DNA from: Candidatus Omnitrophota bacterium
Lineage (GTDB): Bacteria > Omnitrophota > Gorgyraeia > Gygaellales > Profunditerraquicolaceae
Direction: 5' to 3'
DNA: 64,000 nt
Assembly (NCBI GenBank): GCA_028716965.1
Contig: JAQUOV010000001.1
Location: 70,448 to 134,447, forward strand
Shown: piece after piece, positions 528 through 64,000 of the stretch
Layout: each line of letters opens with the position of its first letter
How positions within the stretch are numbered: the stretch's first letter is position 1
Position numbers and translations under genes: made by a program
Notes under the pieces: generated by a model
Databases searched by the model: none
What the model saw: the letters and a program-made list of their open reading frames with translations, nothing else
What the model was told of the DNA's origin: nothing

Positions 528-530
528 AAT

Positions 531-32954: not shown

Positions 32955-32972
32955 GTTTACCTCTTACGAAGT

Positions 32973-42944: not shown

Positions 42945-42949
42945 TTTAT

Positions 42950-43723: not shown

Positions 43724-43724
43724 T

Positions 43725-45508: not shown

Positions 45509-47326
45509 CTATTCCACGCCTTCTTGCGATAATACTTTCTTACTCGCTATGTTTTGAAAAACAGGCGAGCGAAGGAATAACTCATTATAATTACCTTGAT
45601 CTGCTATTTTGCCGTGCTCCAGGACATAAATAAGATCCGCATGCTCAAGCGTGGCCAGACGATGAGTAACCAGTATAATAGTCATGCGGTCCTTTAAATT
45701 CTTAAGGGCTGCGTACAACTGTGCTTCGGTGTGGCCGTCTAATGCGGAACTCGCCTCATCAAGTATGAGTATTTCCGGATTCCTGTATAAAGCGCGAGCT
45801 ATGCCTATCCTCTGTCTCTGTCCCCCGGAAATCCTGACTCCTCTTTCACCTACTTTAGTATCCAAGCCTTCAGGCAGGGTTTTAATGAAAACTTCCAGCT
45901 GTGCGACTCTAATCGCATATTCAACCCTTGCACGGTCTATCTCCTGCTCAAGAACACCAAAAGCGACATTAGAAATAATACTGCCATCTAACAAAAAGAT
46001 ATGTTGAGGAACATACCCTATTTTACCCTGGTATTGGACCATGTTATCCTGGCTAATGGGCATATCGCAATAATCCAGGCGGCCTTTAAGCGGAGTAAGT
46101 AATCCTGTGAGCAGGTCAATAACTGTGCTCTTACCTGATCCAGTTTCACCGACAATAGCGCAAATACGATGAAGCGGAAAAAATATAGTTAAGCCTTCAA
46201 AAATTGGATGGGCTGCTGTTTGATAGCAAAACGTCACTTCTCTAAGAGAAATATTTTTAACTTGTGAGGAAACATTGATAGTCAAAACACCCTGATGACG
46301 ATCGTAATCATTTTCTTCCTTCAACACATCGTAAACGATATTCAAGCTATTCCCGCCAAAATGAAAAGATGCTACACTTTCGTATATTTTAGAAAAGGAA
46401 GCTGAAAGACGCATCATCGCTACCGCAAATACTGACATCATCGGAATAAACTCAATAAAGGGCTTATGCGAATATATAACAAAAAATACACCTAAAAGCG
46501 CCAGAATGACAAAAACTGTTTCAAGTATCTGCTTAGGTAAACTCGACACAGTAATAAATTTTACCAGGGCACTTGTATAACTTTTTGTAGATGTAAAATA
46601 TCCAGAAGCAAAATAATCATGGACATTGTATATTTTGATCTCTTTAACAGCCCCCAGAGATTCAAGAGCATTTTTATACAGCATCACGCTAAAAGTCTCG
46701 CGCTGCGCAGCATATGCCTTTATGCGTTTCCTAAAAAAAACGTTGACCAATAACGAAAGCAACCCGAAAATAACAAAGATGGCTATCGTCAATACAGGAT
46801 ATGTGTAGATAAGAAACAAGCATACGCCAGCGAGAATAATAACCTCGGAGGCGATGGATATAGCAGGACTTAATAAATAGTTAACGCAATTGTTCGCCTC
46901 TGATGAAGTATTTTTAAATAATTCGGATGAATTGTAAACCAAATGGTAGGAGTATGGTTTTTCTAAATAAGACGAAAGAACTTTTGACGTCAGACGACTA
47001 TAGATATTACCTAAAACCTTTTGTTTCTGATAAAGCATAAAAACTGAATACGCAGATCTTGCCAATAGAATCACGCAGGTCACTGCAATTAAAATAGCCA
47101 CAAATAAAAAAGTATCAGGAGAGCCACAAACATGATAAAGCCAGTTTAATACCGGGGTTGAACTGATCTTCTGAGGGAATATAAATAAAGTCATAAGAGG
47201 AAGTACTATCGCAATGCTGAATGTCTCTAAGAGCGACAATAGCATAGCGCCCACTCCCAACAAAACTAGCCGCCTCTTTTCAGATGCAGTAAGAATATTT
47301 CTTAACTTACTTAACAGTTCTTTCAT
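45509..47326 (-). CDS. ABC exporter, fused permease-ATPase (MsbA/ABCB-type)
   Basis: Six N-terminal TM helices, then Walker A GETGSGKST, signature LSGGQRQRIGIARAL, Walker B ILILDEASSALD and an H-loop VTHRL. Confidence 0.9.
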   Translation of the reverse strand: MKELLSKLRNILTASEKRRLVLLGVGAMLLSLLETFSIAIVLPLMTLFIFPQKISSTPVLNWLYHVCGSPDTFLFVAILIAVTCVILLARSAYSVFMLYQKQKVLGNIYSRLTSKVLSSYLEKPYSYHLVYNSSELFKNTSSEANNCVNYLLSPAISIASEVIILAGVCLFLIYTYPVLTIAIFVIFGLLSLLVNVFFRKRIKAYAAQRETFSVMLYKNALESLGAVKEIKIYNVHDYFASGYFTSTKSYTSALVKFITVSSLPKQILETVFVILALLGVFFVIYSHKPFIEFIPMMSVFAVAMMRLSASFSKIYESVASFHFGGNSLNIVYDVLKEENDYDRHQGVLTINVSSQVKNISLREVTFCYQTAAHPIFEGLTIFFPLHRICAIVGETGSGKSTVIDLLTGLLTPLKGRLDYCDMPISQDNMVQYQGKIGYVPQHIFLLDGSIISNVAFGVLEQEIDRARVEYAIRVAQLEVFIKTLPEGLDTKVGERGVRISGGQRQRIGIARALYRNPEILILDEASSALDGHTEAQLYAALKNLKDRMTIILVTHRLATLEHADLIYVLEHGKIADQGNYNELFLRSPVFQNIASKKVLSQEGVE

Positions 47327-47342: not shown

Positions 47343-49097
47343 TTAAAGTTTTCTTACAAACTGAGCCCATTCATTACGCCATTTCGTTGACGAACGGGCA
47401 AACTGAAAACAAAAATCATTCTTTGCACGTTGTAAATCAGGATTATTCCACCACACTAAAACATCTGGCCAAATATCATTTATCTTTTTAGCTGCCGTTT
47501 CTGGTCTATCATACAATATTCCGACAGACCGTAATTTATCAAAATACGGGGAGGCAGCTTCACAGACTCTGAAATGCGCAGGATCCCAATAAATAATTGT
47601 AGGAGTATTCATGGCCAGCGCCTCAAGAAAACTGGTAGTCTGATGATCAATCACGGCAAGCCTTGTCCGAGAAAAAAAGTTGCTTAATGACCCTGTGGTG
47701 AGAAACTGATTTTCAGGCAAAATTTGCTTAATAAACTCTAGTTCTTTGGTGCCATAATCATTGAAATAAGGCCTATATTTTACTTTTTTGAGTATATCTT
47801 TTCTAAGATGCTTCAAAAATATCATTTTACTTTTCATGTAATCAATTATCTGTCCCGGTTCCAGGTAATTATTCAACCTATACAGATAGGTGCCTGTTTC
47901 TGTTCCTACAAAAATAATACTATCTTCTTTTTCTGCATGCTTTTTCAACTTGCTAAGCATTGGAGAGGGTAATGCAAGATAATTCGCATTATATATATGC
48001 TTATGCCCCCATCCCCATGTTATAAACTCTCCGGAAGTTTCATATTCAAGCTTACCAACTGGAAACGATATAGATTGACCGTAAACACCGCCGTGTTGAG
48101 TAGAAATCCAACGGCCGCCGCTCTCCAGAATAAAAGCTATATCAGAACACTCTTTTTCTGATAAATACACATCCATACCCACCCATATTTTAATATTCGG
48201 GTCGATCTTTGTGTTATATTTGTAAACGCTCAGCAGCATATCCGGTATATGCTTTAACAATATCTCTTGTACAATCTTTTCAAATTTATTTTTCGCTCCG
48301 AAATCCAAGCGGACACGATTAAGATCTTCCCTTGCAATCTTAATCATCTTAGCAGGAATATCTACCTTTTTTTTTAATAAAAATACGGGGTCACGAACAA
48401 ACTGTAAATACATCTTATCTGTTAAAGACAAGCCGTATATCTTACCTAAGAAAACAGAAGAAGTAAAAAAACTATTTAGATAATTTTTAACGTTTTCTTT
48501 AGTTGATAATAAAATTTCTCTGATGCCGCTTTTAAAACTTTTTTCTTGACTAATGGCTCTCACATTTTGAAATATACTTACCTTAGTACAGTCTAAGAAA
48601 TCAAATCGCGCGTGATTTATAATATCTGTCATCAATAGAAGATTATGATAATGGCCTTCTGTAATCCTTGAGATAAAACCCCAGAAATCTCTAACCGTGG
48701 GATCATATTGATCAAGAATCTTAACCTCGAATCTTTCCTTAAAATTCTCTCCAATATATTCCAGCCTTCTATAGCGATCGTAAACAATACCCAACCAATG
48801 ATGCAGCCATAATATCATATAAGCATTCCAAAATTTTTCGCTATACGCCAAACGATGCAAGCTATTCATAATGCTGGCCATCTTTGGAATAATCCGATTA
48901 TATAATTCATCTATATATAACGTTGAATCAAGCATATCCTGTGACTTTTCCCATGGCGATGGCGCCAACTGAAATTTATCTTGTTCAAAAAAATCATATT
49001 TATCGTTATAACAAAAACAGTGCGCGCCAAGAAAAAGCGCCTGCTTCTCATTAGTTGGCCAAGTTTCTTTATGTCCAGTTAATACTAGTTCTCGCAT
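47343..49097 (-). CDS. Large (584 aa) uncharacterized soluble protein, candidate novel transferase
   Basis: No recognised motif. It lies between the ABC exporter and pseI. There is a faint GT-B-like C-terminal region (TIIYWDP...). Confidence 0.3.
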   Translation of the reverse strand: MRELVLTGHKETWPTNEKQALFLGAHCFCYNDKYDFFEQDKFQLAPSPWEKSQDMLDSTLYIDELYNRIIPKMASIMNSLHRLAYSEKFWNAYMILWLHHWLGIVYDRYRRLEYIGENFKERFEVKILDQYDPTVRDFWGFISRITEGHYHNLLLMTDIINHARFDFLDCTKVSIFQNVRAISQEKSFKSGIREILLSTKENVKNYLNSFFTSSVFLGKIYGLSLTDKMYLQFVRDPVFLLKKKVDIPAKMIKIAREDLNRVRLDFGAKNKFEKIVQEILLKHIPDMLLSVYKYNTKIDPNIKIWVGMDVYLSEKECSDIAFILESGGRWISTQHGGVYGQSISFPVGKLEYETSGEFITWGWGHKHIYNANYLALPSPMLSKLKKHAEKEDSIIFVGTETGTYLYRLNNYLEPGQIIDYMKSKMIFLKHLRKDILKKVKYRPYFNDYGTKELEFIKQILPENQFLTTGSLSNFFSRTRLAVIDHQTTSFLEALAMNTPTIIYWDPAHFRVCEAASPYFDKLRSVGILYDRPETAAKKINDIWPDVLVWWNNPDLQRAKNDFCFQFARSSTKWRNEWAQFVRKL

Positions 49098-50144
49098 TTA
49101 TCGCACTAAACCCCATGTTAAAGGAGTACCTCTTGTAATATCTTTGCGCGCGACTTTTCTTAGTATTCTTTTATAATATTTAGGTTCGATTCCGCAGGAC
49201 GGTCTTATCGAACGGATATTTTCTTCAGTCAACTGCTCACCTCTGCTTATGTCCTTAACTGCAAAAAGCGACCTTCTAAAATCCAAGCTTGTTTTTTCCT
49301 TAGCTGTTGGCCCGTAAAAAACATCACCTACCGCTCTTTCTGCCATCCTCACACTATTAACAAGTTCTTTTAATTCGATCGGCTCAATAGAAAAAGAACT
49401 ATCCGGAGTTTTTATCTTTCGTGATAATGTAAAATGCTTTTCAACCACTATAGCCCCAAGGCAGACTGCGGCAATCGATACTGCTGTTCCAAGCGTATGA
49501 TCCGAAAGCCCCACCCGACATCCAAAACGTTTTTTCATGTCCAATATGGTGCTAAGGTTCATCTCCCTTGGATCCGCGGGATAACTGCTCACACATTTAA
49601 GAAGAGTAATATCTTTTGATCCCGACTTCTTTGCTATATTAACGGCTTCCCTTATCTCCTGAATAGTAGCCATTCCTGTGGATAATATTATGGGTTTCTT
49701 AGTTTTGGCCGCATATTCGATCAATGACAAATCAATAAGTTCAAAAGACGCAATTTTATGGAAGGGAACTTTTAGATCTTCAAGGAAATCAATAGCTGTT
49801 TTATCAAAAGCTGTCGCAAAGAATGCCAGTCCTAAATTATCCGCTATGGTTTTTAGTTTTTTGAACCATCCCCAAGGTGTATACGCCTTTTTATACAATT
49901 CGTACAGGGTCTGACCTTTCCACTTACCGCTCTTTATCTTAAAATAATCATTGTTGCTATTAAAGGTGATGGTATCAGGAGTATAGACCTGAAATTTAAC
50001 TGCATCGGCGCCTGCTTCCTTTGCCGCCTTGATCATCTTGATAGCGTTATCGATCTTTTGATAATGGTTTGCCGATATTTCCGCTATTATGAAGGCTGAT
50101 TGTTTAAAACCAATCTTCTTTTCATATCTTCCCAAATTAGCCAT
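49098..50144 (-). CDS. pseI: Pseudaminic acid synthase-like NeuB-family enzyme
   Basis: FIIAEISANHYQKIDNAIKMIKAAKEAGADAVKFQ, plus the pseB/C/G/H context. The 5' end overlaps the WbqC-like gene by 58 nt, so the real start may be a non-ATG codon further in. Confidence 0.8.
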   Translation of the reverse strand: MANLGRYEKKIGFKQSAFIIAEISANHYQKIDNAIKMIKAAKEAGADAVKFQVYTPDTITFNSNNDYFKIKSGKWKGQTLYELYKKAYTPWGWFKKLKTIADNLGLAFFATAFDKTAIDFLEDLKVPFHKIASFELIDLSLIEYAAKTKKPIILSTGMATIQEIREAVNIAKKSGSKDITLLKCVSSYPADPREMNLSTILDMKKRFGCRVGLSDHTLGTAVSIAAVCLGAIVVEKHFTLSRKIKTPDSSFSIEPIELKELVNSVRMAERAVGDVFYGPTAKEKTSLDFRRSLFAVKDISRGEQLTEENIRSIRPSCGIEPKYYKRILRKVARKDITRGTPLTWGLVR

Positions 50145-50848
50145 TTAGAAGTACCTCCTTTAATAAGCTCTAATGTTTCTTTCGGCCCTACATTCATAAG
50201 CGCATCCGCAATTGAGAGGTAAGGAATAAAGCTATGAAGCGAACCAATCTGCTTATATTCTTTCGGTGTAAAACTCTGAAATATCACTTCAATATCTGCA
50301 ACAGGGAAAACTCCATCTTCCAGCATATATTCGAAAGCCCCCTTAGCAGAGAAGTACCGCTTTGCGCCACACCAATGTAAAAGCTCTAAAACTCGCTTTG
50401 AACGTTTTGATGATACGGGAAAATCCGAGCTAAGTCGGAATTCACGCTTCAAATCTAATAGACCACAAACCATCTTGATAAAAGATATGTTCATTTCCGC
50501 TAAAGAACTAAAATCTCCAAAAATCCATTCCTTTAGAGGTTTCAACATATCCTTAAAGAATGGTGCTTTTGAATAGTTTAGCTCTATCGCCTTCCACATC
50601 TTCACCCGCCATTTTGTAGCCTCGTTAATCCTTACTTCATTTAGCGGGGCCATAAATGAGGAAGTCTTTTGAACAGGCACAGTATACCATCCTATTTTTT
50701 CTTTATTCACAAAAAGACGGTTACGCTGCTGATAACTCTGCACAGAAAATTGGAAATCATCGAGAAGTATAAAAATTTCCGATCTATATATCAACTCAAA
50801 ATATCCCTGCCAAGGCGCGAAAGTAGGCTGCATCATAGCTACATCCAT
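50087..50848 (-). CDS. WbqC-family protein (conserved nonulosonate-cluster protein of unknown function)
   Basis: MMQPTFAPWQGYFELI...ILLDDFQF... is the characteristic WbqC-like N-terminus. Confidence 0.55.
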   Translation of the reverse strand: MDVAMMQPTFAPWQGYFELIYRSEIFILLDDFQFSVQSYQQRNRLFVNKEKIGWYTVPVQKTSSFMAPLNEVRINEATKWRVKMWKAIELNYSKAPFFKDMLKPLKEWIFGDFSSLAEMNISFIKMVCGLLDLKREFRLSSDFPVSSKRSKRVLELLHWCGAKRYFSAKGAFEYMLEDGVFPVADIEVIFQSFTPKEYKQIGSLHSFIPYLSIADALMNVGPKETLELIKGGTSKWLIWEDMKRRLVLNNQPS

Positions 50849-51339
50849 TCATCCCTCCGCAATCTTAAAAAGATGATCCTGCATCCGCGACTGGACCACT
50901 CATAATCAAGATTTAATTCTGCTTCCTTGAAACCGTTCTTTTTATAAAGGTTAATGGCCGCCAAATTAAAGTCAGCAACATGTAAATAAATCTCTTTTAA
51001 GCCTAATTTTTCAAAACAGTTCTCAAGCATCCCCTTCAGTGCTTTATCACCTATACCCATTCTTCTAGCAGGATGATCCCCGATATATATCCATACCTCC
51101 GCGCTTCTTTTAGACAAATCAATGTTCTTAATACCACAGTTCCCTACATGTAAATCATCTGAGATAATCGCATATACTTTTTGCGTAGGATCGCTCAATA
51201 CCTTTTTAAAATATTGAATATGCTGGCTGTAAGATACCTCACCGCGCATGAGGAATGCTCGACGCAACTCAACATCTTGAATCCATGTAAATGTTTTATC
51301 GATGTGTTCCTTGTTAAAATCTATTAAAACGGTTTCCAT
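50839..51339 (-). CDS. pseH: GNAT N-acetyltransferase, PseH-like (UDP-4-amino-4,6-dideoxy-N-acetyl-beta-L-altrosamine N-acetyltransferase)
   Basis: 166 aa. TFTWIQDVELRRAFLM...HIQYF and a later GNAT core (IGD...RRMGIG), in pse context. Confidence 0.65.
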   Translation of the reverse strand: METVLIDFNKEHIDKTFTWIQDVELRRAFLMRGEVSYSQHIQYFKKVLSDPTQKVYAIISDDLHVGNCGIKNIDLSKRSAEVWIYIGDHPARRMGIGDKALKGMLENCFEKLGLKEIYLHVADFNLAAINLYKKNGFKEAELNLDYEWSSRGCRIIFLRLRRDEWM

Positions 51340-51342
51340 ATC

Positions 51343-52410
51343 TTAAATATCATAGTCCGTGCAACTTCGGCAAAAATCTATTTCCCCTATTTTTCCGATT
51401 TTGTTAAGCTTAAGGATATTCTTGCGTTCTTTGCCATTCCAAATCTCGTAGAGCGTACGCTCTTTGATATTACCCAGTTTTATTTCTGCATTATAAGCAG
51501 CATCACAAAGAGTAACATCTCCATTCGAAAAAATAAAACAGTCGTTGCGAGTGACGCGTAAACACGAAGTAAGGGGTTTCCGAATCCTTTGTTTTAACCC
51601 GAAAGAATTGTTAGGAAGAGTTACATACTCTAGCATATTGACGCTCACAATTTCGGCCTTTTTATAATGCATTCTAATGAAATCATCAACTTCATGACAG
51701 GTAGTCTCCTGTTCTATCATTTGACAATGCAGATATGGTCTTTTCGGCAACCCCGCAGATCCCTTTATCTCATAGAATTTATTCAGGTTATTCTGAACTG
51801 CATTAAAATCCCCCTGTGGAACAACGGTTTTATAAGCTTTCTCCGTAACCGCATGAACAGAAAAATTTATGTAGTGTAGATTTGATCCAAATACCAAGCG
51901 TATCTTCTCTTCCGTAAAATATTGTCCGTTAGTACTCATCCATATAATACCTAAGTTGTTCTTGGTACTTATATGCTTAAGGTTATCCGAAAATTCCGGA
52001 TGCAATAATGATTCTCCCAAATGATAAAGCCATATACCCTCTATACCATGACTATCTATCTCGTCTATCACTTTTCTGTAAAGCTTCCCGTCCATATCCA
52101 TCCGCGGGCGCTTCAAGCCATGCTGGGGACACATTCTACAAAGATAATTACAACGGCTAGTCATTTCAAATAATATTCTGCGTGGAAAACTTTCGCGATT
52201 CAAATAACTACTTGTGGGAGGCTGTCGCCGTATAGGAACCACGGCAAACTCTTTTCTTGCTAGCTCCTCAGCATATTTTAAATTATTCGGATCTGTAACT
52301 AACGAAAGATGCTGTGTCATCAGGACAGGGGCAATCTTTTTAAGATCAAGAAATTTTGGAATTACTGGATTATTTACTTTTACATATCTTGCAAGATCTA
52401 CAAATTCCAT
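51343..52410 (-). CDS. Radical SAM enzyme with SPASM/twitch-like C-terminal domain
   Basis: EMTSRCNYLCRMCPQ (CxxxCxxC) and a C-terminal CDAAYNAEIKLGNIKERTLYEIWNG...CRSC. A paralog of the 36423..37469 protein. Confidence 0.75.
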   Translation of the reverse strand: MEFVDLARYVKVNNPVIPKFLDLKKIAPVLMTQHLSLVTDPNNLKYAEELARKEFAVVPIRRQPPTSSYLNRESFPRRILFEMTSRCNYLCRMCPQHGLKRPRMDMDGKLYRKVIDEIDSHGIEGIWLYHLGESLLHPEFSDNLKHISTKNNLGIIWMSTNGQYFTEEKIRLVFGSNLHYINFSVHAVTEKAYKTVVPQGDFNAVQNNLNKFYEIKGSAGLPKRPYLHCQMIEQETTCHEVDDFIRMHYKKAEIVSVNMLEYVTLPNNSFGLKQRIRKPLTSCLRVTRNDCFIFSNGDVTLCDAAYNAEIKLGNIKERTLYEIWNGKERKNILKLNKIGKIGEIDFCRSCTDYDI

Positions 52411-52425
52411 ATGACTAACCTCACG

Positions 52426-53316
52426 TTATTTGTTAATTGGGCTCGCATATATCGTAACCTGCCTGCCCAGATCCAACTCAGCTAATGCCTTATATAGCTT
52501 TAAAAGTTTATCTTCCTTCCCATATTTGCGCATCAACCGTTCAAATCTTACCCGGCGCAGATGGCATATTTTACCTAAATCCGGATTGCCTACGTATACA
52601 TCCCCCATCAGCATAAATATCTCAAGCGGAAAAGAAGATTCACTATGGATAACTTTATAACCGCATTTGGATAAAAGCCTCTTTAAAGACGTCGCGGAAA
52701 AATAGTTAATGTGATTCGGTGGACATACCCACCATCTCTTCAGGCCATATTCTTTATCGGCAAGCTCCTGAAAATCGTTAAATTCATTAGGCACATCTAC
52801 TACAAGTAATCCTTTAGGCTTGATCAATTTTCTCTTAATATTTAAGAGCGTACTAGCAGGATGACGCAGGTGTTCCAAAACGTTAATCATCGTAATTATA
52901 TGAAACCGCTCTTTTCCTACACAAGAGAAATCTTCAATGCCACATTGAAAAACATTCAACCCTTTACTCTTTATATATTCCGCTCCCTCCTTAGATGGCT
53001 CCAGGCCGCTCACCCTAATACCTTTATTATGAAAGTAAAGCAGTGCTTGACCAAAACCACATCCAACATCAAAGAGTGTTAATCCTTTATGCGTTTTAAA
53101 ATATTCGCTACAATACTTGGATATTGATGCCCAGCGACTGTTGAAAAAACCCTGCTCTTCTTTTTGCACTTTTAACGATGAATCATTAAATTGTTTATAC
53201 GTAGTAGAGTAAAAATCTTCCAGATAGAATCTCTCTACCTCTTCTTGTGTTGGAATGGGGTCTATACGTAAATAGCCATATTTTGGATCAGCTATAATCT
53301 TGTATCGTTTCTTCAT
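52426..53316 (-). CDS. Class I SAM-dependent methyltransferase
   Basis: TLFDVGCGFGQALLYFHNKGIRVSGLEPS (motif I), LLVVDVPN and FDVITMINVLEHL. Confidence 0.8.
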   Translation of the reverse strand: MKKRYKIIADPKYGYLRIDPIPTQEEVERFYLEDFYSTTYKQFNDSSLKVQKEEQGFFNSRWASISKYCSEYFKTHKGLTLFDVGCGFGQALLYFHNKGIRVSGLEPSKEGAEYIKSKGLNVFQCGIEDFSCVGKERFHIITMINVLEHLRHPASTLLNIKRKLIKPKGLLVVDVPNEFNDFQELADKEYGLKRWWVCPPNHINYFSATSLKRLLSKCGYKVIHSESSFPLEIFMLMGDVYVGNPDLGKICHLRRVRFERLMRKYGKEDKLLKLYKALAELDLGRQVTIYASPINK

Positions 53317-53336
53317 AATTTTATCCCTTTAAGACC

Positions 53337-54353
53337 TTAAGAAAACATGGCATTAGCGCATCTTTGGACGCCAAGGCCATCAACCAATTTAAAACTTGCT
53401 TCTGAATACCGTTTTAATATCTCAGAGTTTGATAAAAAATAGTCTATTCTATCCCTTATGTCTGTTGCAGTGACATCTTGAGCATCGCCAAGATAGTCAA
53501 GTATTTCATTTCTTGCCAAGTACTCTATAATCCTGGCTTGATTCTCTGTTACTGTCATTACCATAGATGGCAACCCTAAGCAACAACGTTCCCAGGTCGC
53601 TATTCCGGCCGAACCTATAAACAAATCAGATTCAAGCATCAACTCGGCAATGTTCTCTACGTTATGATAACAAAAAACAGTAGCCTTATCTTTTATAAGA
53701 TGCTGCAATTCAGTCTTGTTGGGATTATCAACCCCTATAACTAGATTTACAGCGATCTCTTGTCTTTTAAGCAAAAAAACGCCTTCAAGGATATTTTTTG
53801 TTATATTTTTCATATCGCTTCCACCAAAAAAAATCAATATTTTCTTAATCAAACCGCTCCTGACTCTTGTCTTTTGTCTTGCGATGGCAAATTCCTTTCG
53901 CAAAAGTGCAAATCTCGGCCCTAGAAGCATCTGGCAATTTCCAGACACTAAAGACTTATAATGATCTTCTAAGCCTTTATATAAATTCTGATCAAGCAGA
54001 AAATCACAAATATGCTCACGACTCCCCATATCATCGATAACCATGACTTTATCTACGAAAGGCCTTATCGCTTTCTCCCATTCAATATTCAATCCATAGT
54101 TATCAATAACCAAGTAAGATGGTCCACTATTATTCGTACATATTTTTTTGATTGCTTGCGGTGAATCATCCTCAATATAAAAAATGTCACACCCGTTCTT
54201 GTTTATTAAACTTTCAAATCCTTTATTCAACCTACGGCATATAAAGGATACATGCAATCCGCGTTCAACTAAGATATTTGCCAACGCCAGACACCTTATA
54301 AGATGGCCAGAGCCTATTTCCGGCGCAGCATCAACTCTGAATAATGCTTGCAT
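53337..54353 (-). CDS. pseG: UDP-2,4-diacetamido-2,4,6-trideoxy-beta-L-altropyranose hydrolase (PseG-like, GT-B/MurG-like fold)
   Basis: MQALFRVDAAPEIGSGHLIRCLALANIL is the signature PseG N-terminus (FRxDA..IGxGHxMRCL.LA). Confidence 0.8.
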   Translation of the reverse strand: MQALFRVDAAPEIGSGHLIRCLALANILVERGLHVSFICRRLNKGFESLINKNGCDIFYIEDDSPQAIKKICTNNSGPSYLVIDNYGLNIEWEKAIRPFVDKVMVIDDMGSREHICDFLLDQNLYKGLEDHYKSLVSGNCQMLLGPRFALLRKEFAIARQKTRVRSGLIKKILIFFGGSDMKNITKNILEGVFLLKRQEIAVNLVIGVDNPNKTELQHLIKDKATVFCYHNVENIAELMLESDLFIGSAGIATWERCCLGLPSMVMTVTENQARIIEYLARNEILDYLGDAQDVTATDIRDRIDYFLSNSEILKRYSEASFKLVDGLGVQRCANAMFS

Positions 54354-54369
54354 AATATAAATTTCTCCC

Positions 54370-55680
54370 CTAGGTTAATCTCTTGAATCCGGAATGGCAG
54401 ACGGGTCCTTTCAAATAAAGTTCCGGTCTATTCTTTTTAAGCGCTTTTGATATAGAAGCAAAAACGCTCTCTACAGCTTCTAAATAAACTTCAATGTGCT
54501 TCTCTTTATGCGCATAAGAAGCATAGTAAGCGTTTGTCGCTAAGAATCCCTTCTGAAGCATGTACTGCGTAAAAAGCGTCTTCAAAACTAGAGGTTCCTT
54601 ATAATTAAAAGAGAAATGAGAAAGTGGGTATATTCCATCTACTTTTATATCTACAGAATGTCTCTCCGCTGATATTTTCCATCCATTCTGAATCTTCATA
54701 CCCATAAGGTTAAGATGTTCAGGAATATTGTTAAGTTTCATCTTTTTTATAGCGGCCAACGCTGCCGCCGGTCCAATACGGTCAGTCCAATAGGTGCTGC
54801 TGATAAAGCTATCTTGGGCGTTCTGCATAATCTTTTTTCTACCTATTATCGCTGCCATTGGAAAACCATTGCTGATAGCCTTAGCAAATACCGCTATATC
54901 CGGTTCTATATTAAACAATTTATGCGCGCCGCCAACACATAGGCGCCATCCGGAAGAAACTTCATCCATAATAAGCACGGCTTTTGCTTTACGACTTTCA
55001 TTTCTTACAACTTCCAGAAAACCGCTTGACGGATATTTGTTTCTTATCGGCTCAATAATCACAGCTGCAATTTTACCCTTATATTTATTTATCAGGCTCA
55101 AGAATGTTTGCGTATCATTATAATTAAAGGGTATGGCTGTACCCTTTAATGCACGGGGCACTCCCTTAGGTTCTAATCCCGATAATAGATGCCCATCCAA
55201 AGATTTGTCATCTGCAAGGTTAGATGCCAAATACCAATCACTCCACCCATGATAGCCGCAAAAAAGTATTAAGTCCTTTCCTGTCGCAGCGCGCGCGATT
55301 CTAACGGCAATTGCCATTGCCTCTCCACCGCATCTGGCATACCTAACCATATCAGCCCAAGGATGAAGCTTAATAAGTAATTCCGCCAACTCTACTTCTT
55401 CGGGCACATTAAGCGTTGTCATGTTGCCACAGCTTACTGCTCTTTTTACCGCTTTATCAATATCGGGATCAGTATATCCTATAATACAGGCGCCAATTCC
55501 CATATAACTCATATCTATATATCGTTTCCCATCAAGATCCCAAATTTCACATCCTTTAGCTTTACTGTAATAAGCCGGCCAGTTTTCCGGTAAGAACATC
55601 TCCGGCCGCTTTGAAAAAAGTTGCGTGCCTCCAGGTATCAACTTTTTAGCTTTTTTATATAGTTCCTGTGATTTACCCAT
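54370..55680 (-). CDS. Class-III PLP aminotransferase (glutamate-1-semialdehyde aminomutase-like)
   Basis: LIPGGTQLFSKRPE, then a PLP Lys region (FAKAISNGFP). Start trimmed to the ATG at 55680 (MGKSQELY); the track start at 55704 is a TTG. Confidence 0.75.
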   Translation of the reverse strand: MGKSQELYKKAKKLIPGGTQLFSKRPEMFLPENWPAYYSKAKGCEIWDLDGKRYIDMSYMGIGACIIGYTDPDIDKAVKRAVSCGNMTTLNVPEEVELAELLIKLHPWADMVRYARCGGEAMAIAVRIARAATGKDLILFCGYHGWSDWYLASNLADDKSLDGHLLSGLEPKGVPRALKGTAIPFNYNDTQTFLSLINKYKGKIAAVIIEPIRNKYPSSGFLEVVRNESRKAKAVLIMDEVSSGWRLCVGGAHKLFNIEPDIAVFAKAISNGFPMAAIIGRKKIMQNAQDSFISSTYWTDRIGPAAALAAIKKMKLNNIPEHLNLMGMKIQNGWKISAERHSVDIKVDGIYPLSHFSFNYKEPLVLKTLFTQYMLQKGFLATNAYYASYAHKEKHIEVYLEAVESVFASISKALKKNRPELYLKGPVCHSGFKRLT

Positions 55681-56836
55681 TTTTATGACGATTGCATACC
55701 TCAAAAACAGTGTTAATGATATATTGAATTTCCCTGCTGGTCAACGCAGGATATATCGGAAGACTGATTTCTCTATGATAAAAATCTTCAGCTGCTGGAC
55801 AGATTCCTTTTTTAAAGCCGAGTTTTTTATAGTAAGGGTGCAAATAAACAGGAATATAATGTACCTGAACCCCTATTTTTTTATCCCTAAGGAGCTTAAA
55901 TATACCGTCTCTTTTTAATTCTAAATCTTTTTTCAGCCTGATGGGATAAAGATGGTAGGCGCAAAACACATCTTTATTTTCTTTAGGAACATCGAAGAAA
56001 TGATTGCCATTAAAAGCTTTATTATATGTAACGGCAATTTTACGCCTTTTTTCTATAAAAAAATCCAGCTTCTTCAACTGAGATATTCCAAGCGCGGACT
56101 GGATATCAGTCAAACGATAATTAAATCCAAGCTCCTGCATCTCATAATACCAACCACAATATCTCATTTTTCTATCTAACGATTTAGAATCCTTGGTAAT
56201 CCCATGATTGCGCAGCATTAAAAGACGTTGATATAGTCTTTTATTGTTCGTCAATACCGCCCCGCCTTCCCCTGTAGTAATTGCTTTTACAGGATGAAAA
56301 CTAAGAATAGCCATATCTGAATATTTACAAGAGCCTATTTTTGAACCTTTATACCTAGCTCCCAAGGCATGCGCCGCATCTTCAATAATCAATAAATCAT
56401 TCTTTCTTGCAATAATAGCTATCTCCTGCATATCGCATGGATATCCGGCGAAGTGAACTGGTACTAAAACTTTTGATTTCCTGGTTATTTTTTTAACTAT
56501 ATCGATTGGGTCTATATTACCGGTTTCCGGTTGTATATCCGCAAAAATAGGCTTTGCTCCGCAATAAAGAATGCAATTCGCAGAAGCTGCGAACGTTATA
56601 GGTGAAGTTATGGCCTCATCCCCGCGCCTTAATCCGGCAGATAAAGCTGCAATATGTAACGCGGCCGTACCGCTTGATACAGCCACCGCAAATTTAACGC
56701 CTGCATAATCACAAAGAGCGCTTTCAAATTCCGCGATCTTTGGCCCCTGCGTAATCCATTCAGAATTAAGGGCTCCTACTACTTCCCTAACATCATCCTG
56801 GTTAATACATTGATGTCCGTAAGGAATAGTTTTCAT
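55673..56836 (-). CDS. pseC: UDP-4-amino-4,6-dideoxy-N-acetyl-beta-L-altrosamine transaminase-like (PseC; DegT family)
   Basis: IPYGHQCINQDDVREVVGALNSEWITQGPKIAEFESALCDYAGVKFAVAVSSGTAALHIA is the typical PseC N-terminus. Start trimmed to the ATG at 56836 (MKTIPYG), immediately after the pseB stop. Confidence 0.85.
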   Translation of the reverse strand: MKTIPYGHQCINQDDVREVVGALNSEWITQGPKIAEFESALCDYAGVKFAVAVSSGTAALHIAALSAGLRRGDEAITSPITFAASANCILYCGAKPIFADIQPETGNIDPIDIVKKITRKSKVLVPVHFAGYPCDMQEIAIIARKNDLLIIEDAAHALGARYKGSKIGSCKYSDMAILSFHPVKAITTGEGGAVLTNNKRLYQRLLMLRNHGITKDSKSLDRKMRYCGWYYEMQELGFNYRLTDIQSALGISQLKKLDFFIEKRRKIAVTYNKAFNGNHFFDVPKENKDVFCAYHLYPIRLKKDLELKRDGIFKLLRDKKIGVQVHYIPVYLHPYYKKLGFKKGICPAAEDFYHREISLPIYPALTSREIQYIINTVFEVCNRHKNG

Positions 56837-57855
56837 ATTGATTTTAACGCCTTTCGTAGCTCTGTTTGCGTCAACCATTTTTTATTAGTATCACTAGCAT
56901 AGCTGAATCCTACAGGCACTTTTGTATATTTTTCATATTTTTCGTTAATTGCCCTTCCCCCTGAGAATTGCGGCATAATAACATAGAGACCATTAAATAT
57001 CTTTGCATTCCGCGCCTCATCACATGAAATTAGAAGCTCATGCAGCTTTTCTCCCGGTCGAATACCTATTTTCTTAAATTTGCATTCAGGCAGGATCGCT
57101 CGGGCAAGATCTACTATCTTCATAGACGGTATTTTTGGAACAAATATTTCGCCGCCTTCGGCCTCTTTAAGAGCCGTAATCACAAAATTAACACTCTGTT
57201 CCAAAGTCATCCAAAAACGCGTCATTGCATCATCGGTAATGGGAAACTCGGTTATACCGCGCCGTTTAAGATCAAGAAAAAGCTCAATAACGCTTCCTCT
57301 TGAAGCCATAACATTACCATAACGAACGACGGAGAACTTAACACGATTTCCGCCATAAGCGTTCGCGTTGATAAATATCTTTTCAGCTACCAGCTTAGTG
57401 GCACCATAAAGATTAATAGGATTTACCGCTTTATCCGTCGACAGTACTATAACTTTTTTTACGCCTCGGTCAAGAGCCGCATCAACAATATTATCGGCCC
57501 CTTGTATATTAGTCTTTACCGCTTCAAGAGGGTTATATTCAAGCGCTGGCACCTGTTTTAAGGCAGCGGCATGAATAACATAATCTACCCCCTCAAAAGC
57601 CCTACAAAGACGCCCCTTATCCCTGACATCTCCTAAGAAAAAACGAATCGGGTACTTGTCATCCGGAAATACTTTTGCCATTTCGCTTTGCTTGAATTCG
57701 TCCCTGCTGAAAATTATAAGCTTCTTTAATTTGAATTTTTTAAATACCATTTCGGTAAACTTCTTACCGAAAGAACCTGTTCCACCGGTCACCAGAATTA
57801 CTTTATCTTTCAAGTTCACAATCCCCTCCTCGCTCATCTTCCCATAGGCCATCAT
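56833..57855 (-). CDS. pseB: UDP-N-acetylglucosamine 4,6-dehydratase (inverting) / 5-epimerase (PseB/FlaA1-like)
   Basis: KVILVTGGTGSFGKKF...IIFSRDEFKQSEM...STDKAVNPINLYGATK is the short CapD/PseB-type SDR. Confidence 0.85.
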   Translation of the reverse strand: MMAYGKMSEEGIVNLKDKVILVTGGTGSFGKKFTEMVFKKFKLKKLIIFSRDEFKQSEMAKVFPDDKYPIRFFLGDVRDKGRLCRAFEGVDYVIHAAALKQVPALEYNPLEAVKTNIQGADNIVDAALDRGVKKVIVLSTDKAVNPINLYGATKLVAEKIFINANAYGGNRVKFSVVRYGNVMASRGSVIELFLDLKRRGITEFPITDDAMTRFWMTLEQSVNFVITALKEAEGGEIFVPKIPSMKIVDLARAILPECKFKKIGIRPGEKLHELLISCDEARNAKIFNGLYVIMPQFSGGRAINEKYEKYTKVPVGFSYASDTNKKWLTQTELRKALKSI

Positions 57856-59752
57856 TTATAAAGAAAGCACTCTCTATGTTATTTACTTTCTTATACCGCT
57901 CCGCTGCTAAATCCAGCGATTTAATAGGATCCCTGCTTACGACCACATCTTCCATAAAAATTCGGATAAATTCGCTTATTCTACTCTGACCTTTAAAATC
58001 ACCGAAATAGTTAAAAACATCTTTCCATTTAGAAAAATCTCCTATCCTGGTATCTCCTGTGCTCACTCGATTAAGAGCTGATACTATTTCCTCGAGATTC
58101 TTAAAAAATATCTTTTGCTCCGGATCTCTGTATATCGGATAATGTAGAAATCCGGATAAGTCCCAATGTATAGCCCTATGACCATAAATACCACTTATTA
58201 TTCCCGCCGAGTTCAAACCATAACAAACTGATATATTTGCATACGCCGCAGCTGTAATAGGCGAAACTTTGTTATTAAGAAAAACAAGTCTTCTCTGATT
58301 GATAAGCAACATTGCTTTTGAAACGATATCTTTACCGAAAGGCAAAGATTCAAGGTCATTTATTCTACCCCAGATTTTACTCTTTATTATCCCACCCCAT
58401 TCTGAGTTTTCCTCAAGCATCTCCAATACCTTAAGGTAGAATCTGGCCAAAGTCTCCTCTGATTGATGTATATTATACGCCACAGTAGAATCAAAAATTG
58501 CCATGATAAATCTTAGATCATCTTTCATACAGATCGCGCTGACATCTTCAACCGAGGGTCCCAACCATATACCCACCGGCAAAACATGACGGGCAATATT
58601 GCCCCTCTTTTGCATCCGTTCATACATCACTTTACCCCAAACAAAATATACATGCTGAGGATGGGACATCAAAGCTTCCTTGTAAAATGGAAAATTGGAC
58701 CAATGATACCCCAGCATAATCCCACCTACTTCTTCAAGTGCTATCATCTGTGGCTCTTTCACCCAAGACCCTTCCTGATGTTCAATCAGCACTTTCACCT
58801 TAAAGCGGCTGAAGACCGCTTTGTAGAGAAGATAAAACATTCTGAATTCGAACCGGAAAACTCTAAACCAAAACGGAGAACTCGAATAAGCGGAAAGAAA
58901 AGTACAAAACATATCCCAAAGTTGCCAAACACCTATATTGGCAAGCCGCACAAGAGAACCTGAACGCAAATCTACCCATTTTAAGCCCATATCCTCTATA
59001 GCCCTGATCTCATCCTCTAAAGAAACACCATCATTCCGATCAAGATAACAAACGATATCAAATTTCTTTCTATCTATGACATCGTGATTAAATGGAAAAC
59101 TACACCTACCATAATGAAGATACTCTAACCAGACGGATGGCTTGGGCTCATGAATATTAGTTCTTCCTCTTTTCTGAAATAACCTTTTCACCACAATTGA
59201 AAAAAGCCTGCAACACGGTATTAAAAAATAATTAACATACCCAAAAGATAACCCAGATTCCCTTATGCTATAACCTTTATCTCTATAATACTTCTTAATC
59301 ACTGAAGTTAAAGGATGCTTAGCCAGATAAATCACATTTATTCCACCATCTTGCTTAAACTTATCGCTACCCTCAACCATAGTTATAAATGTAACATAAG
59401 GCGCTAAATAAAAACTTATATATACTTTTACCGCGCTTTTAAAGCGCTCTGGTTCTTTCGGAATATACCTCTGGCAAAATTTACTCAGACAGATATCAAG
59501 ATCATTCTCCTTCCTATAGTTAAGGGCATAGCCTATCACATCTTTTTTATCCAAAGTCAATTTTGCCATATAAAAATTTTTGCAACAACCATAACTTTGC
59601 AATTTGCCAATTAAGAATGCTGCAATACCAGAAATCTTTTTTTCATCATACCTAACAGGAATTCGAGAAAAAAAAGTTTCGATAAATAGCCATATAAAAT
59701 CAAACATACCAAGCTTTTCAACCCAAATTGACAGTATCCTTTTATATCGCAT
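57803..59752 (-). CDS. Large (649 aa) uncharacterized protein, candidate novel transferase
   Basis: No recognised motif and mostly soluble. It sits between a B12 radical SAM gene and pseB, and its 3' end overlaps the pseB start by about 50 nt. Confidence 0.3.
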   Translation of the reverse strand: MRYKRILSIWVEKLGMFDFIWLFIETFFSRIPVRYDEKKISGIAAFLIGKLQSYGCCKNFYMAKLTLDKKDVIGYALNYRKENDLDICLSKFCQRYIPKEPERFKSAVKVYISFYLAPYVTFITMVEGSDKFKQDGGINVIYLAKHPLTSVIKKYYRDKGYSIRESGLSFGYVNYFLIPCCRLFSIVVKRLFQKRGRTNIHEPKPSVWLEYLHYGRCSFPFNHDVIDRKKFDIVCYLDRNDGVSLEDEIRAIEDMGLKWVDLRSGSLVRLANIGVWQLWDMFCTFLSAYSSSPFWFRVFRFEFRMFYLLYKAVFSRFKVKVLIEHQEGSWVKEPQMIALEEVGGIMLGYHWSNFPFYKEALMSHPQHVYFVWGKVMYERMQKRGNIARHVLPVGIWLGPSVEDVSAICMKDDLRFIMAIFDSTVAYNIHQSEETLARFYLKVLEMLEENSEWGGIIKSKIWGRINDLESLPFGKDIVSKAMLLINQRRLVFLNNKVSPITAAAYANISVCYGLNSAGIISGIYGHRAIHWDLSGFLHYPIYRDPEQKIFFKNLEEIVSALNRVSTGDTRIGDFSKWKDVFNYFGDFKGQSRISEFIRIFMEDVVVSRDPIKSLDLAAERYKKVNNIESAFFINDGLWEDERGGDCELER

Positions 59753-63958: not shown

Positions 63959-64000
63959 AGTCGCTTATTTCTTGCTTTGATTCGCTTTTATGAATGCGGC

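Follow-up and report, generated by a model that had tools for sequence, protein, structure and literature searches.

A pseudaminic acid gene set with a BtrN-like radical-SAM enzyme, probably the core of a widespread tailoring cassette, in an Omnitrophota MAG

The window analyzed here is a 64,000-nt stretch of an Omnitrophota MAG. The ORF scan took in every minus-strand ORF of at least 120 aa. Core-gene calls rest on NCBIfam equivalog cut-offs, and domains were assigned by Pfam. Nine genes are tightly packed at positions 49098–57855, each overlapping the next or separated from it by ≤20 nt:

56833–57855, minus strand: PseB, UDP-GlcNAc 4,6-dehydratase (inverting); TIGR03589, 477.1 bits (cut-off 407.75)
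55673–56878, minus strand: PseC aminotransferase; TIGR03588, 506.8 bits (cut-off 423.5)
54370–55680/55704, minus strand: AT3, class-III (GSAM/GenB-like) PLP aminotransferase; Pfam Aminotran_3
53337–54353, minus strand: PseG, UDP-sugar hydrolase; TIGR03590, 274.1 bits (cut-off 153.55)
52426–53316, minus strand: MT23, class-I SAM methyltransferase; Pfam Methyltransf_23, 81.7 bits
51343–52410, minus strand: BtrN-like radical-SAM enzyme; Pfam Radical_SAM and SPASM
50839–51339, minus strand: GNAT N-acyltransferase, PseH-like; TIGR03585, 67.1 bits (below the cut-off of 93.1)
50087–50848, minus strand: WbqC-family protein, function not assigned; PF08889, 201 bits
49098–50144, minus strand: PseI, pseudaminic acid synthase; TIGR03586, 468.2 bits (cut-off 340.25)

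All nine genes that an earlier note on this DNA had called in this interval are present on the minus strand, and Pfam places the class-III aminotransferase, methyltransferase, radical-SAM, and WbqC genes where they were predicted. That note took the pathway to be of the pseudaminic acid (Pse) type, to be checked against legionaminic acid (Leg) models by profile HMMs, and the profiles bear it out. PseB, PseC, PseG, and PseI exceed their NCBIfam cut-offs, while the Leg and Neu models stay below theirs (LegB, 61 bits vs. 475; LegC, 246 vs. 420; PseI against the NeuB model, 316.9 vs. 399.65). Judged from these scores, the interval is a genuine Pse gene set, and the core steps predicted for PseB, PseC, PseG, and PseI are backed by curated HMM thresholds. 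The PseH call stands only as the best family: PseH is the top NCBIfam family for the GNAT but lies below its threshold, and the closest PDB sequence is C. jejuni PseH (4XPK, 2.3e-8). Because this is the sole GNAT detected within the window, the PseH step is probably its job, and a new amine would then lack an obvious acyltransferase. Together, PseB, PseC, the PseH-like GNAT, PseG, and PseI would produce the nine-carbon sugar from UDP-GlcNAc.

The order PseB-PseC-AKR-CT-AT3-PseG-MT-rSAM-GNAT-WbqC-PseI (AKR, aldo-keto reductase; CT, cytidylyltransferase; MT, methyltransferase; rSAM, radical-SAM enzyme), or a close variant of it, is seen at about 25 loci (22 genome loci plus L003, L026, and L027) from more than 10 phyla. 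The hosts include Desulfobacterota, Nitrospirota, Verrucomicrobiota, Elusimicrobiota, Binatia, Rhodocyclaceae, and Acetobacterium, as well as an archaeon (Methanoperedens) and a CPR bacterium. The earlier note regarded the tailoring genes as inserted into the operon. They are instead fixed members of the cassette, and the oddity of the present locus is a block of four genes, moved out of the cassette, about 20 kb downstream of its core:

33581–34501, minus strand: aldo-keto reductase (AKR); Pfam and NCBIfam
32973–33584, minus strand: nitroreductase-family protein (NTR); Pfam and NCBIfam
31941–32954, minus strand: NeuB2, second NeuB-family synthase; Pfam and NCBIfam
31127–31927, minus strand: CT266, SpsF-like cytidylyltransferase; Pfam and NCBIfam

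In L026, all four block families are located between pseC and AT3 (58% identity for AKR, 66% for NTR, and 68% for CT), although the NeuB of L026 shares just 31% identity with NeuB2. In L028, the four families abut pseI, and NeuB2 shows 61% identity. The extra genes are part of a widespread, unstudied tailoring cassette around the BtrN-like radical-SAM enzyme.

Gene fusions are also seen. An SpsF-like cytidylyltransferase of the CT266 type is fused with AT3 in three lineages (L007, L016, and L022), and GNAT is fused with WbqC in L023 and P0224. On the spiro-SPASM profile TIGR04321, CT266 homologues align at 23–227 and the radical-SAM enzyme of this locus at 228–505. These CT::AT3, GNAT::WbqC, and CT-like::rSAM fusions link the tailoring enzymes with CMP activation.

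The pathway had been described as complete except for PseF, with activation left to a distal SpsF- or KdsB-like gene. All proteins wholly within the window do score below the PseF cut-off (205.7 bits), the two CTP_transf_3 proteins at 36.5 and 44.8 bits. The apparent absence is, however, largely an edge effect, because a NeuA/PseF-type gene runs across the window edge, and just the 36 nt of its 3' end fall inside:

63965–64000, minus strand: NeuA/PseF-type cytidylyltransferase (235 aa), 3' end; last 12 codons, AAFIKANQSKK*

The locus L030 extends the window (100% identity across 6880 nt), and the gene reaches about position 64672, with 672 nt outside the window. Its top family is PseF (TIGR03584, 157.6 bits, below the cut-off, over positions 1–218 of the 222 in the profile), and its closest PDB entries are the CMP-Neu5Ac synthetases 6IFD (7.5e-41) and 1EYR. 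It heads a gene string that includes the pse genes, and upstream of the window it is adjoined by a PtmE-like gene. The closest PDB entry to CT266 is the cytidylyltransferase 6OEW (7e-40). Most related cassettes have a single cytidylyltransferase, to which CT266 is 42–49% identical; against those of L026, L027, and L028, the identity is 66–68%. Canonical PseF (242 and 310 bits) is found in loci without CT266 (L015 and L023), and by BLAST a partial PseF-like ORF at the contig start of L020 is 38% identical to the L015 PseF. In Vibrio, an SpsF-like CT::AKR fusion was proposed as a NeuA substitute (PMC7371886). The distal SpsF-like candidate thus has comparative support, whereas the KdsB-like gene belongs to a separate HpcH-aldolase module, which is conserved in L010 and L015 too.

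PseF is probably not absent from this cassette. Activation of Pse would be performed either by the edge enzyme or by CT266, the usual sole activator of the cassette elsewhere. We lean slightly toward the edge gene; CT266 is a less probable but serious candidate, and the KdsB-like gene is a very improbable one. Alternatively, the edge cytidylyltransferase may act on a legionaminic-type sugar produced by NeuB2. It is rather unlikely that the operon truly lacks PseF, depends on distal SpsF-like or KdsB-like activation, and carries the radical-SAM enzyme, methyltransferase, and second aminotransferase as insertions of its own. The PseF scores inside the window and the orthology of CT266 are consistent with this, but the NeuA/PseF-type gene cut by the window edge belongs to this gene string, about 25 loci share the tailoring genes as conserved members, and the KdsB-like gene travels with its aldolase module.

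The radical-SAM enzyme has an invariant C87-x3-C91-x2-C94 motif, four further invariant cysteines (C283, C302, C347, and C350), and, N-terminally, a conserved domain of about 75 aa. In a PDB profile search, BtrN was the first match (1.6e-15; runner-up, 4e-3) with both domains aligned, and the alignment extends over the radical-SAM core and takes in each of the four auxiliary cysteines. Foldseek with the AF2 model (pLDDT 85) also placed BtrN first (4M7T, 3.2e-11). The enzyme had been labeled a SPASM protein; with BtrN at the top by sequence and by fold, it is better predicted as a BtrN-type enzyme with one auxiliary (Twitch-type) cluster, not a full SPASM enzyme. The substrate, the attacked position, and the reaction type proposed here are all extrapolated from about 20% identity to BtrN. 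The enzyme would take the carbinol hydrogen at C8 or C4 of (CMP-)Pse, where a secondary hydroxyl is free, to yield a ketone, and the electron would exit via the single auxiliary [4Fe-4S] cluster.

AT3 could then turn this ketone into an amine. AT3 is under every NCBIfam cut-off (hemL, 219 vs. 527), contains the PLP lysine motif FAKAISNG, and matches GSAM (5e-46), the FumI aminopentol aminotransferase, and the GenB C-6' aminotransferases (~1e-35) in the PDB. AT3 has the sugar C-6' aminotransferases (GenB) and GSAM among its relatives, and an oxidize-then-transaminate scheme would parallel BtrN/BtrS and GenQ/GenB of aminoglycoside pathways. MT23, adjoining the radical-SAM gene, would methylate the tailored product. 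Orthologues of MT23 (39–67% identity) are present in 21 of the 25 related loci; in 13 of the 25, the methyltransferase immediately precedes the radical-SAM gene, and in most of the rest it lies within the cassette. The methyltransferase and WbqC are closer genetic partners of the radical-SAM gene than the aminotransferase is. MT-rSAM-WbqC occurs without AT3 or AKR in two complete loci, L013 and L015, and the Legionella pneumophila Sg6/Sg12 clusters contain PseG-AT3-CT-AKR with no radical-SAM gene (PMC3694923); the oxidation and transamination therefore cannot be an obligatory pairing.

It is doubtful, though worth weighing, that the BtrN-like enzyme is a radical epimerase or dehydratase, or readies a carbon for methylation, so that the product is an epimeric, deoxy, or C-methyl nonulosonic acid (NulO) and the aminotransferase acts elsewhere. 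The frequency and position of MT23 and the lack of AT3 in L013 and L015 would suit such chemistry. Epimerases (EpeE) are known among the Twitch/SPASM enzymes and sugar dehydratases (AprD4) among the radical-SAM enzymes, and both appear among the weaker matches of this enzyme. An extra, near-invariant Cys291 could donate a hydrogen, but 2 of 20 homologues have Ala instead. Against this reading, BtrN outranks all other matches by a wide margin in sequence and fold, and AT3 is carried by 15 of the 22 genome loci.

WbqC showed no match in a PDB sequence search, and its AF2 model (pLDDT 92.4) showed no PDB fold match (best E 7e-3, TM 0.33). Its identity with PtmG was checked and rejected. WbqC and GNAT may work together on an N-acyl step. 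A wider proposal, which we consider improbable, is that the radical-SAM enzyme, methyltransferase, WbqC, and GNAT work not on the skeleton of Pse but on an unusual N-acyl chain at N7 or N5, which they would make or modify. The GNAT::WbqC fusions and the sub-threshold PseH score of GNAT point to it, as do a formyltransferase in the GNAT slot of L026, between the radical-SAM gene and WbqC, and another between PseG and PseI in L020; known Pse/Leg diversity is also mostly N-acyl diversity (bioRxiv 10.64898/2026.04.20.719630). BtrN, however, targets a carbinol on the ring, the slot GNAT is missing from L013, L015, and L021, which retain MT-rSAM-WbqC, and no acyl-carrier or CoA-ligase genes are seen in the cassette of the window.

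Both sides of the interval carry further genes:

63077–63958, minus strand: WbuZ/HisF-like; TIGR03572, 276 bits (just below the cut-off of 299.7)
62422–63099, minus strand: HisH; TIGR01855, 186.6 bits (cut-off 105.4)
61177–62412, minus strand: WbuX N-acetyl-sugar amidotransferase; TIGR03573, 357.4 bits (cut-off 203.2)
59765–61177, minus strand: B12-binding radical-SAM enzyme, putative C-methyltransferase class; Pfam B12-binding and Radical_SAM
57803–59752, minus strand: 649-aa protein, possibly polysaccharide transferase; PF27878 PFTS_polysacc (weak) in precomputed annotation, no match in local Pfam or NCBIfam
47343–49097, minus strand: LIC12162-family transferase; TIGR04331, 378 bits (cut-off 225)
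45509–47326, minus strand: PglK/MsbA-like ABC exporter; ABC_tran and ABC_membrane

The upstream WbuX, HisH, and WbuZ/HisF-like genes are the predicted set for converting an acetamido to an acetamidino group. PtmG/PseA-type amidotransferases use CMP-NulO as substrate (PMC3766260). Homologues of the B12-binding radical-SAM enzyme (27–30% identity) lie within the cassettes of L007, L009, L012, L014, L016, and L019. The LIC12162-family transferase and the ABC exporter likely represent the glycan transfer and export steps, and would put the sugar onto the glycan. A derivatized Pse, as the earlier note expected, is reasonable given the extra aminotransferase, methyltransferase, and radical-SAM genes. 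The product is likely a modified Pse with keto/amino, methyl, and probably acetamidino changes, a chemistry we infer from the gene content.

It is very unlikely that the product is legionaminic acid or another non-Pse nonulosonate; NeuB2 matches the NeuB model best (299.6 bits) and the PtmE-like gene lies upstream of the window, but every Leg/Neu model is far under its cut-off for the interval genes, the Pse models are over theirs, and PseG represents a Pse-specific step. Least credible of all is a peptide (RiPP) maturase merely neighboring sugar genes: the Pfam SPASM match and fold matches to SkfB, SuiB, and CteB are set against a single auxiliary-cluster cysteine set, BtrN as the top match, no precursor-peptide context seen, and a position within the pse cluster at every locus with enough flank (PseI present, 21 of 25) in more than 10 phyla.

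Taking core, activation, and tailoring jointly, we consider it fairly probable that a conserved CMP-pseudaminic-acid cassette, spread horizontally, has its core in this interval, within a 64-kb surface-polysaccharide locus. Compared with the canonical CMP-Pse pathway of Campylobacter and Helicobacter (PseB-PseC-PseH-PseG-PseI-PseF), PseB, PseC, PseG, and PseI are equivalog-level matches, and a PseH-like GNAT and a NeuA/PseF-type cytidylyltransferase are likewise found in one gene string. The differences are that this GNAT and the edge cytidylyltransferase are below curated cut-offs, that at least five extra conserved genes are interleaved (AT3, MT23, BtrN-like radical-SAM, WbqC, AKR/NTR/NeuB2/SpsF-like CT), and that most relatives of the cassette have an SpsF-like cytidylyltransferase in place of PseF.

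BtrN, the butirosin 2-deoxy-scyllo-inosamine dehydrogenase (PDB 4M7T), is the closest to the present enzyme in sequence and fold. Both have the CxxxCxxC motif and a single four-Cys auxiliary cluster with equal spacing, and both are paired with an aminotransferase gene (BtrS for BtrN) in a sugar pathway of anaerobes. Unlike BtrN, the enzyme here has the additional N-terminal domain and a nonulosonic acid context, and its activity is predicted. Its partner aminotransferase is class III (GSAM/GenB-like) and missing from some loci, while BtrS is DegT-type.

Sugar tailoring at the CMP level has precedents in PtmG/PtmH (acetamidino, N-methyl; PMC3766260) and ElaA/ElaB/ElaC (CMP-Leg C8 epimerization; ElaA/ElaC, PMC13656337). 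The shared logic is that the sugar is changed after or around CMP activation. The WbuX/HisH/HisF-like genes are a PtmG/PtmH-like trait, and as in the Ptm and Ela systems, a cytidylyltransferase is fused or adjacent to tailoring enzymes. The Ela families are Gfo/Idh/MocA and SDR, whereas those here are radical SAM, class-III aminotransferase, AKR, and WbqC; correspondence of ElaABC to the AKR/AT3/CT trio was checked and rejected. In Vibrio Pse clusters and the Legionella pneumophila Sg6/Sg12 O-antigen loci, an SpsF-like CT/AKR/class-III aminotransferase sub-module, proposed as a NeuA/PseF replacement (PMC7371886, PMC3694923), adjoins the pse genes like here, but the radical-SAM/MT23/WbqC sub-module is not included. 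The spiro-SPASM proteins of spirochaetes (TIGR04321) have a CT266-like domain followed by a radical-SAM/SPASM domain, and the latter matches the present enzyme at 63 bits, against a family cut-off of 250; at this locus, each domain has its own gene, and about 20 kb lies between them.

The whole 64-kb window is a single surface-polysaccharide locus on the minus strand. It contains glycosyltransferases, a Wzx-type flippase, a Wzy_C protein, an initiating sugar transferase and several deoxysugar enzymes, together with four B12-radical-SAM genes and an ABC exporter. Nine genes are tightly packed at 49098-57855. They are listed here with the adjoining gene at 47343-49097.

Genes at 47343-57855 (profile or Pfam family; score against cut-off)
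56833-57855, minus strand: PseB (TIGR03589; 477.1 bits against 407.75)
55673-56878, minus strand: PseC (TIGR03588; 506.8 bits against 423.5)
54370-55680, minus strand: class-III aminotransferase, AT3 (Aminotran_3)
53337-54353, minus strand: PseG (TIGR03590; 274.1 bits against 153.55)
52426-53316, minus strand: methyltransferase, MT23 (Methyltransf_23)
51343-52410, minus strand: radical-SAM protein, rSAM (Radical_SAM and SPASM)
50839-51339, minus strand: PseH-like GNAT protein (TIGR03585; 67.1 bits against 93.1, sub-threshold)
50087-50848, minus strand: WbqC-family protein (PF08889; 201.4 bits against a gathering score of 21.3)
49098-50144, minus strand: PseI (TIGR03586; 468.2 bits against 340.25)
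47343-49097, minus strand: LIC12162 family transferase (TIGR04331; 378 bits against a subfamily cut-off of 225)

The core enzymes for pseudaminic acid (Pse) are present, with PseB, PseC, PseG and PseI above the equivalog cut-offs. The GNAT protein is PseH-like but sub-threshold. PseH is its top family, C. jejuni PseH (4XPK) is its top PDB match, and it is the sole GNAT found in the window. The earlier note had read these genes as a Pse-type set and had left the choice between Pse and legionaminic acid (Leg) to profile HMMs. The LegB, LegC and NeuB models are far below their cut-offs on the interval genes (TIGR04180, 61.0 bits against 475; TIGR04181, 245.8 against 420; TIGR03569, 316.9 against 399.65), which favours Pse. 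For the tailoring genes that it saw in the operon, a second aminotransferase, a methyltransferase and a radical SAM enzyme, as for WbqC, the Pfam matches confirm the gene type. A promoter and terminator scan of 44-64 kb gave no enrichment over shuffles.

Homologues of rSAM with 44-77% identity are seen in many lineages. Twenty-two loci were recovered when species-representative genomes were scanned, and exact-protein look-ups added further ones; the ORFs of these relatives were compared by BLAST with the window proteins. Four loci (L005, L008, L010, and L012) have the order PseB-PseC-AKR-CT266-AT3-PseG-MT23-rSAM-GNAT-WbqC-PseI, in which AKR is an aldo-keto reductase and CT266 is an SpsF-like cytidylyltransferase, and close variants occur elsewhere. 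Among the hosts are Desulfobacterota, Nitrospirota, Verrucomicrobiota, Elusimicrobiota, Binatia, Rhodocyclaceae, a magnetotactic Rhodospirillaceae, an oral Desulfovibrio, Acetobacterium, a CPR Zambryskibacteria MAG, and the archaeon Methanoperedens; Desulfonema magnum is a carrier that can be cultured. This Pse cassette is conserved and uncharacterised, contains a radical-SAM gene, and comes mostly from lineages that are anaerobic or uncultured.

In the window, the cassette is the same but for an empty slot between pseC and AT3. Of the fully resolved relatives examined, L026 matches best (67% identity for rSAM, 68% for AT3, and 68% for the cytidylyltransferase), and there this slot is filled by AKR-nitroreductase-NeuB-CT266. 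The same four families form a block in the window at 31127-34501, about 20 kb downstream of the cassette. In L028, from another Omnitrophota MAG, the AKR-nitroreductase-NeuB-CT block adjoins pseI. The tailoring genes had been taken for local insertions; they are conserved cassette members in the loci of many lineages. Because these genes are conserved and the four-gene block sits elsewhere in L026 and L028, the oddity of the window is its displaced block, not the possession of tailoring genes.

The NeuB-family synthase of the displaced block (NeuB2, 31941-32954) scores below the cut-offs of both the NeuB model (299.6 bits against 399.65) and the PseI model (220.8 against 340.25). A nitroreductase/BluB-like flavoprotein (32973-33584) adjoins it, and the pair is kept with AKR and CT266 in L026 and L028. 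In Acetobacterium (L003, 1-3000), the cassette is flanked by a flagellin gene, a gene for a Maf-type flagellin glycosyltransferase and chemotaxis genes, within a flagellin/Maf glycosylation island. Its use therefore differs among hosts: in some it serves to glycosylate flagellin, and in others it is part of LPS- or capsule-type loci, such as the window.

The cluster motif CxxxCxxC of rSAM (C87-x3-C91-x2-C94) is invariant in an alignment of 20 homologues. The only other invariant cysteines in the alignment are C283, C302, C347, and C350, while C291 is near-invariant. These four line up with cysteines of BtrN, and the protein is predicted to hold a single auxiliary [4Fe-4S] cluster, whose four Cys ligands would be arranged as in BtrN. 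The description of this protein as a SPASM enzyme does not hold for the two-cluster motif: despite a Pfam SPASM match (49.4 bits), the CX5CX3C part of the seven-Cys set (CX2CX5CX3C), which marks the second auxiliary cluster, is absent from rSAM. The protein ends five residues past C347-x2-C350. In an hmmsearch of its profile against all PDB sequences, BtrN is first (1.6e-15, with the core and C-terminal cysteines aligned) and MoaA is the runner-up (4e-3). BtrN (4M7T) is also the top Foldseek match (3.2e-11, target TM 0.65-0.71) of the AlphaFold model (pLDDT 85). rSAM has a BtrN-type (Twitch) architecture. BtrN converts a ring carbinol of an aminocyclitol into a ketone, which is then transaminated.

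Residues 1-75 of rSAM (given as 51343-51570 of the window) form a conserved, confidently folded N-terminal domain before the radical-SAM core. BtrN lacks this domain of ~75 residues, which may serve to bind a substrate or a partner. At L011 1406-3691, a stop-free frame of 762 codons contains the rSAM homologue at residues 408-762. The frame is either an N-terminal fusion to a ~400-aa domain or simply a stop-free upstream region.

Within class III, AT3 falls in the GSAM branch, and it has the PLP lysine context. Its description as GSA-aminomutase-like is right at the level of this branch, but the protein is not HemL itself (TIGR00713, 219.4 bits against 527.3; NF004856, 256.3 against 486) and lies below every curated cut-off. 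Among the PDB structures related to it are GSAMs and GenB aminotransferases, which act at C-6' of aminoglycosides. For the WbqC family (PF08889), we know of no assigned function. The AlphaFold model of the WbqC-family protein (pLDDT 92.4) has no significant fold match in the PDB, and its best, weak matches are class-I tRNA-synthetase and E1-like nucleotide-binding folds (E 7e-3, TM 0.33).

Two other assignments were rejected. WbqC, with 253 aa, is not PtmG, which is WbuX/PseA-like and is an amidotransferase of ~45 kDa (PMC8687705, PMC3766260). The AKR/AT3/CT trio is not ElaABC, whose enzyme families differ: ElaA is Gfo/Idh/MocA, ElaC is an SDR, and ElaB is a cytidylyltransferase (PMC13656337).

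All minus-strand ORFs of at least 120 aa in the window were scanned for PseF (TIGR03584, cut-off 205.7). Just two of them have a cytidylyltransferase domain, CT266 (266 aa, 31127-31927) and a KdsB-like protein (42950-43849), and their PseF scores are 36.5 and 44.8 bits, respectively. Contig L030, reached in Logan through a look-up of the 649-aa gene at 57803-59752, matches 6880 nt of the window at 100% identity and runs 1.8 kb past base 64000. It has a 235-aa CTP_transf_3 gene on the same strand, directly upstream of a HisF-like gene; the last 36 nt of the window (63965-64000) are the final 12 codons of this edge gene, which extends to about 64672. It matches PseF best of all families (157.6 bits, profile positions 1-218 of 222), below the cut-off, and the closest PDB relatives of its product are CMP-N-acetylneuraminate synthetases (7.5e-41). 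Cytidylyltransferases of the right superfamily are present, and none of them is a curated PseF equivalog. A NeuA/PseF-type candidate activator heads the gene string of the pathway. The absence of PseF, the one gap that the earlier note had seen, is therefore largely an artefact of the window edge. Upstream of the edge gene, the part of L030 beyond the window (3-1828) carries a partial gene with CBS and sugar-1-phosphate nucleotidyltransferase domains. It resembles PtmE of the Leg route and suggests that a second nonulosonate branch may lie beyond the window.

The activator had instead been sought among distal SpsF- or KdsB-like genes. CT266 is 42-49% identical to the cassette cytidylyltransferases, which are 38-60% identical among themselves. 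Most loci with CT266 have no PseF-type gene within 10 kb. Among the loci without CT266, L015 and L023 have a canonical PseF (310 and 242 bits), and L020 has a partial PseF-like ORF (BLAST only). L012 has both CT266 and a NeuA-type gene, the latter paired with a second NeuB. In a Vibrio Pse cluster, an SpsF-like CT::AKR fusion was proposed as a replacement of NeuA (PMC7371886). Because of its likeness to the cassette cytidylyltransferases, the PseF-type genes in loci that lack it, and the Vibrio proposal, CT266 is a plausible candidate for a CMP-nonulosonate synthetase. This genome has two NeuB-type synthases (PseI and NeuB2) against two candidate synthetases (the edge gene and CT266), and either synthetase may pair with either synthase. 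The KdsB-like protein is unlikely to be the Pse activator; it passes a KdsB-subfamily cut-off (NF009905, 306.5 bits against 255) and travels in a separate module.

This module (42123-45478, minus strand) consists of an HpcH/HpaI-type aldolase, a methyltransferase, the KdsB-like cytidylyltransferase and a 273-aa protein with no assigned function. It is also found near the Pse cassette of Methanoperedens (L010, 17586-20963), where the aldolase, the cytidylyltransferase and the 273-aa protein are 48-61% identical and the methyltransferase 22%. It recurs in Desulfocapsa (L015, 13650-21065), where no copy of the 273-aa gene was detected. Because the module is present in an archaeon, a group in which we know of no Kdo-LPS, it may lead, by way of a pyruvate aldolase, to a different CMP-activated ulosonic acid.

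The four B12-binding radical-SAM proteins of the window are encoded at 59765-61177, 37459-38967, 29604-31130, and 8555-10219, and a second radical-SAM/SPASM protein (36423-37469) is 20% identical to rSAM. This load of radical chemistry is unusually high for a polysaccharide cluster. B12-radical-SAM genes are also seen inside related cassettes (L007, L009, L012, L014, L016, and L019). The 649-aa protein and a 610-aa protein (34594-36426) have no match in local Pfam or NCBIfam, and the former has a weak precomputed match to PF27878 (PFTS_polysacc). BLAST detects no similarity among these two and the LIC12162 protein. A separate deoxysugar module (20290-25075) includes a GDP-mannose 4,6-dehydratase (21323-22306), a NUDIX protein (22322-22807), a TylC3-like sugar C-methyltransferase (22747-23955) and a DegT aminotransferase (23957-25075). 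Its gene families imply a putative C-methylated amino-deoxyhexose in the same glycan.

Pse and Leg decorate flagella, capsules and LPS, and govern motility, phage recognition and immune evasion. To our knowledge, their tailoring chemistry is known almost solely from a few aerobic or microaerophilic pathogens. Among the papers listed by full-text literature searches, none connected radical SAM to pseudaminic or nonulosonic acids, and none was a functional study of WbqC or of a GSA-aminomutase with pseudaminic acid. The conserved and widely transferred cassette brings to the Pse pathway radical-SAM chemistry and three uncharacterised partners: WbqC, the SpsF-like cytidylyltransferase with AKR, and the GSAM-like aminotransferase. 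With 9-11 genes, it is a compact system for finding a new nonulosonate, its tailoring chemistry is directly testable, and it offers a route to the function of the WbqC family and a test of whether SpsF-like enzymes are true CMP-nonulosonate synthetases. As a practical matter, pathway genes "missing" at a window edge should be sought on longer contigs.

It can be speculated, with low confidence, that rSAM is the first radical-SAM enzyme of nonulosonic-acid biosynthesis. It would convert CMP-Pse into a keto intermediate, from which AT3 and MT23 would make a new triamino and/or methylated nine-carbon sugar (e.g., 8-amino-8-deoxy-Pse). Such a surface sugar would be specific to anaerobes, and horizontal transfer would have spread it among >10 bacterial phyla, CPR bacteria and Methanoperedens archaea.

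Apart from this speculation, the mechanism proposed for the cassette is that rSAM would oxidise a free hydroxyl (C8 or C4) of Pse or CMP-Pse by radical chemistry, AT3 would transaminate and MT23 would methylate. WbqC together with the GNAT protein would have an N-acyl-related role, and the upstream WbuX/HisH/HisF set would form an acetamidino group.

A strict order of oxidation and then transamination is disfavoured by gene content. The complete clusters L013 and L015 have MT23-rSAM-WbqC and neither AT3 nor AKR. PseG-AT3-CT-AKR is found in the Sg6/Sg12 loci of Legionella pneumophila, where a radical-SAM gene is lacking (PMC3694923), and the CPR locus L024 has AT3 and an rSAM gene without MT23 or WbqC. 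The sub-modules of the cassette are therefore combinable. Instead of oxidation, the reaction of rSAM may be epimerisation, dehydration or methylation-priming. CT266::AT3 fusions are found in Desulfonema, a Syntrophaceae MAG and Rhodospirillaceae LM-1, and GNAT::WbqC fusions in L023 and P0224; a natural GNAT::WbqC fusion comes from Desulfovibrio sp. OH1186_COT-070. In the spirochaete profile TIGR04321, CT266 homologues correspond to the first 227 positions and rSAM to positions 228-505. These fusions, together with the precedents of PtmG/PtmH and ElaA/ElaC, suggest that tailoring occurs at or around the CMP-sugar stage.
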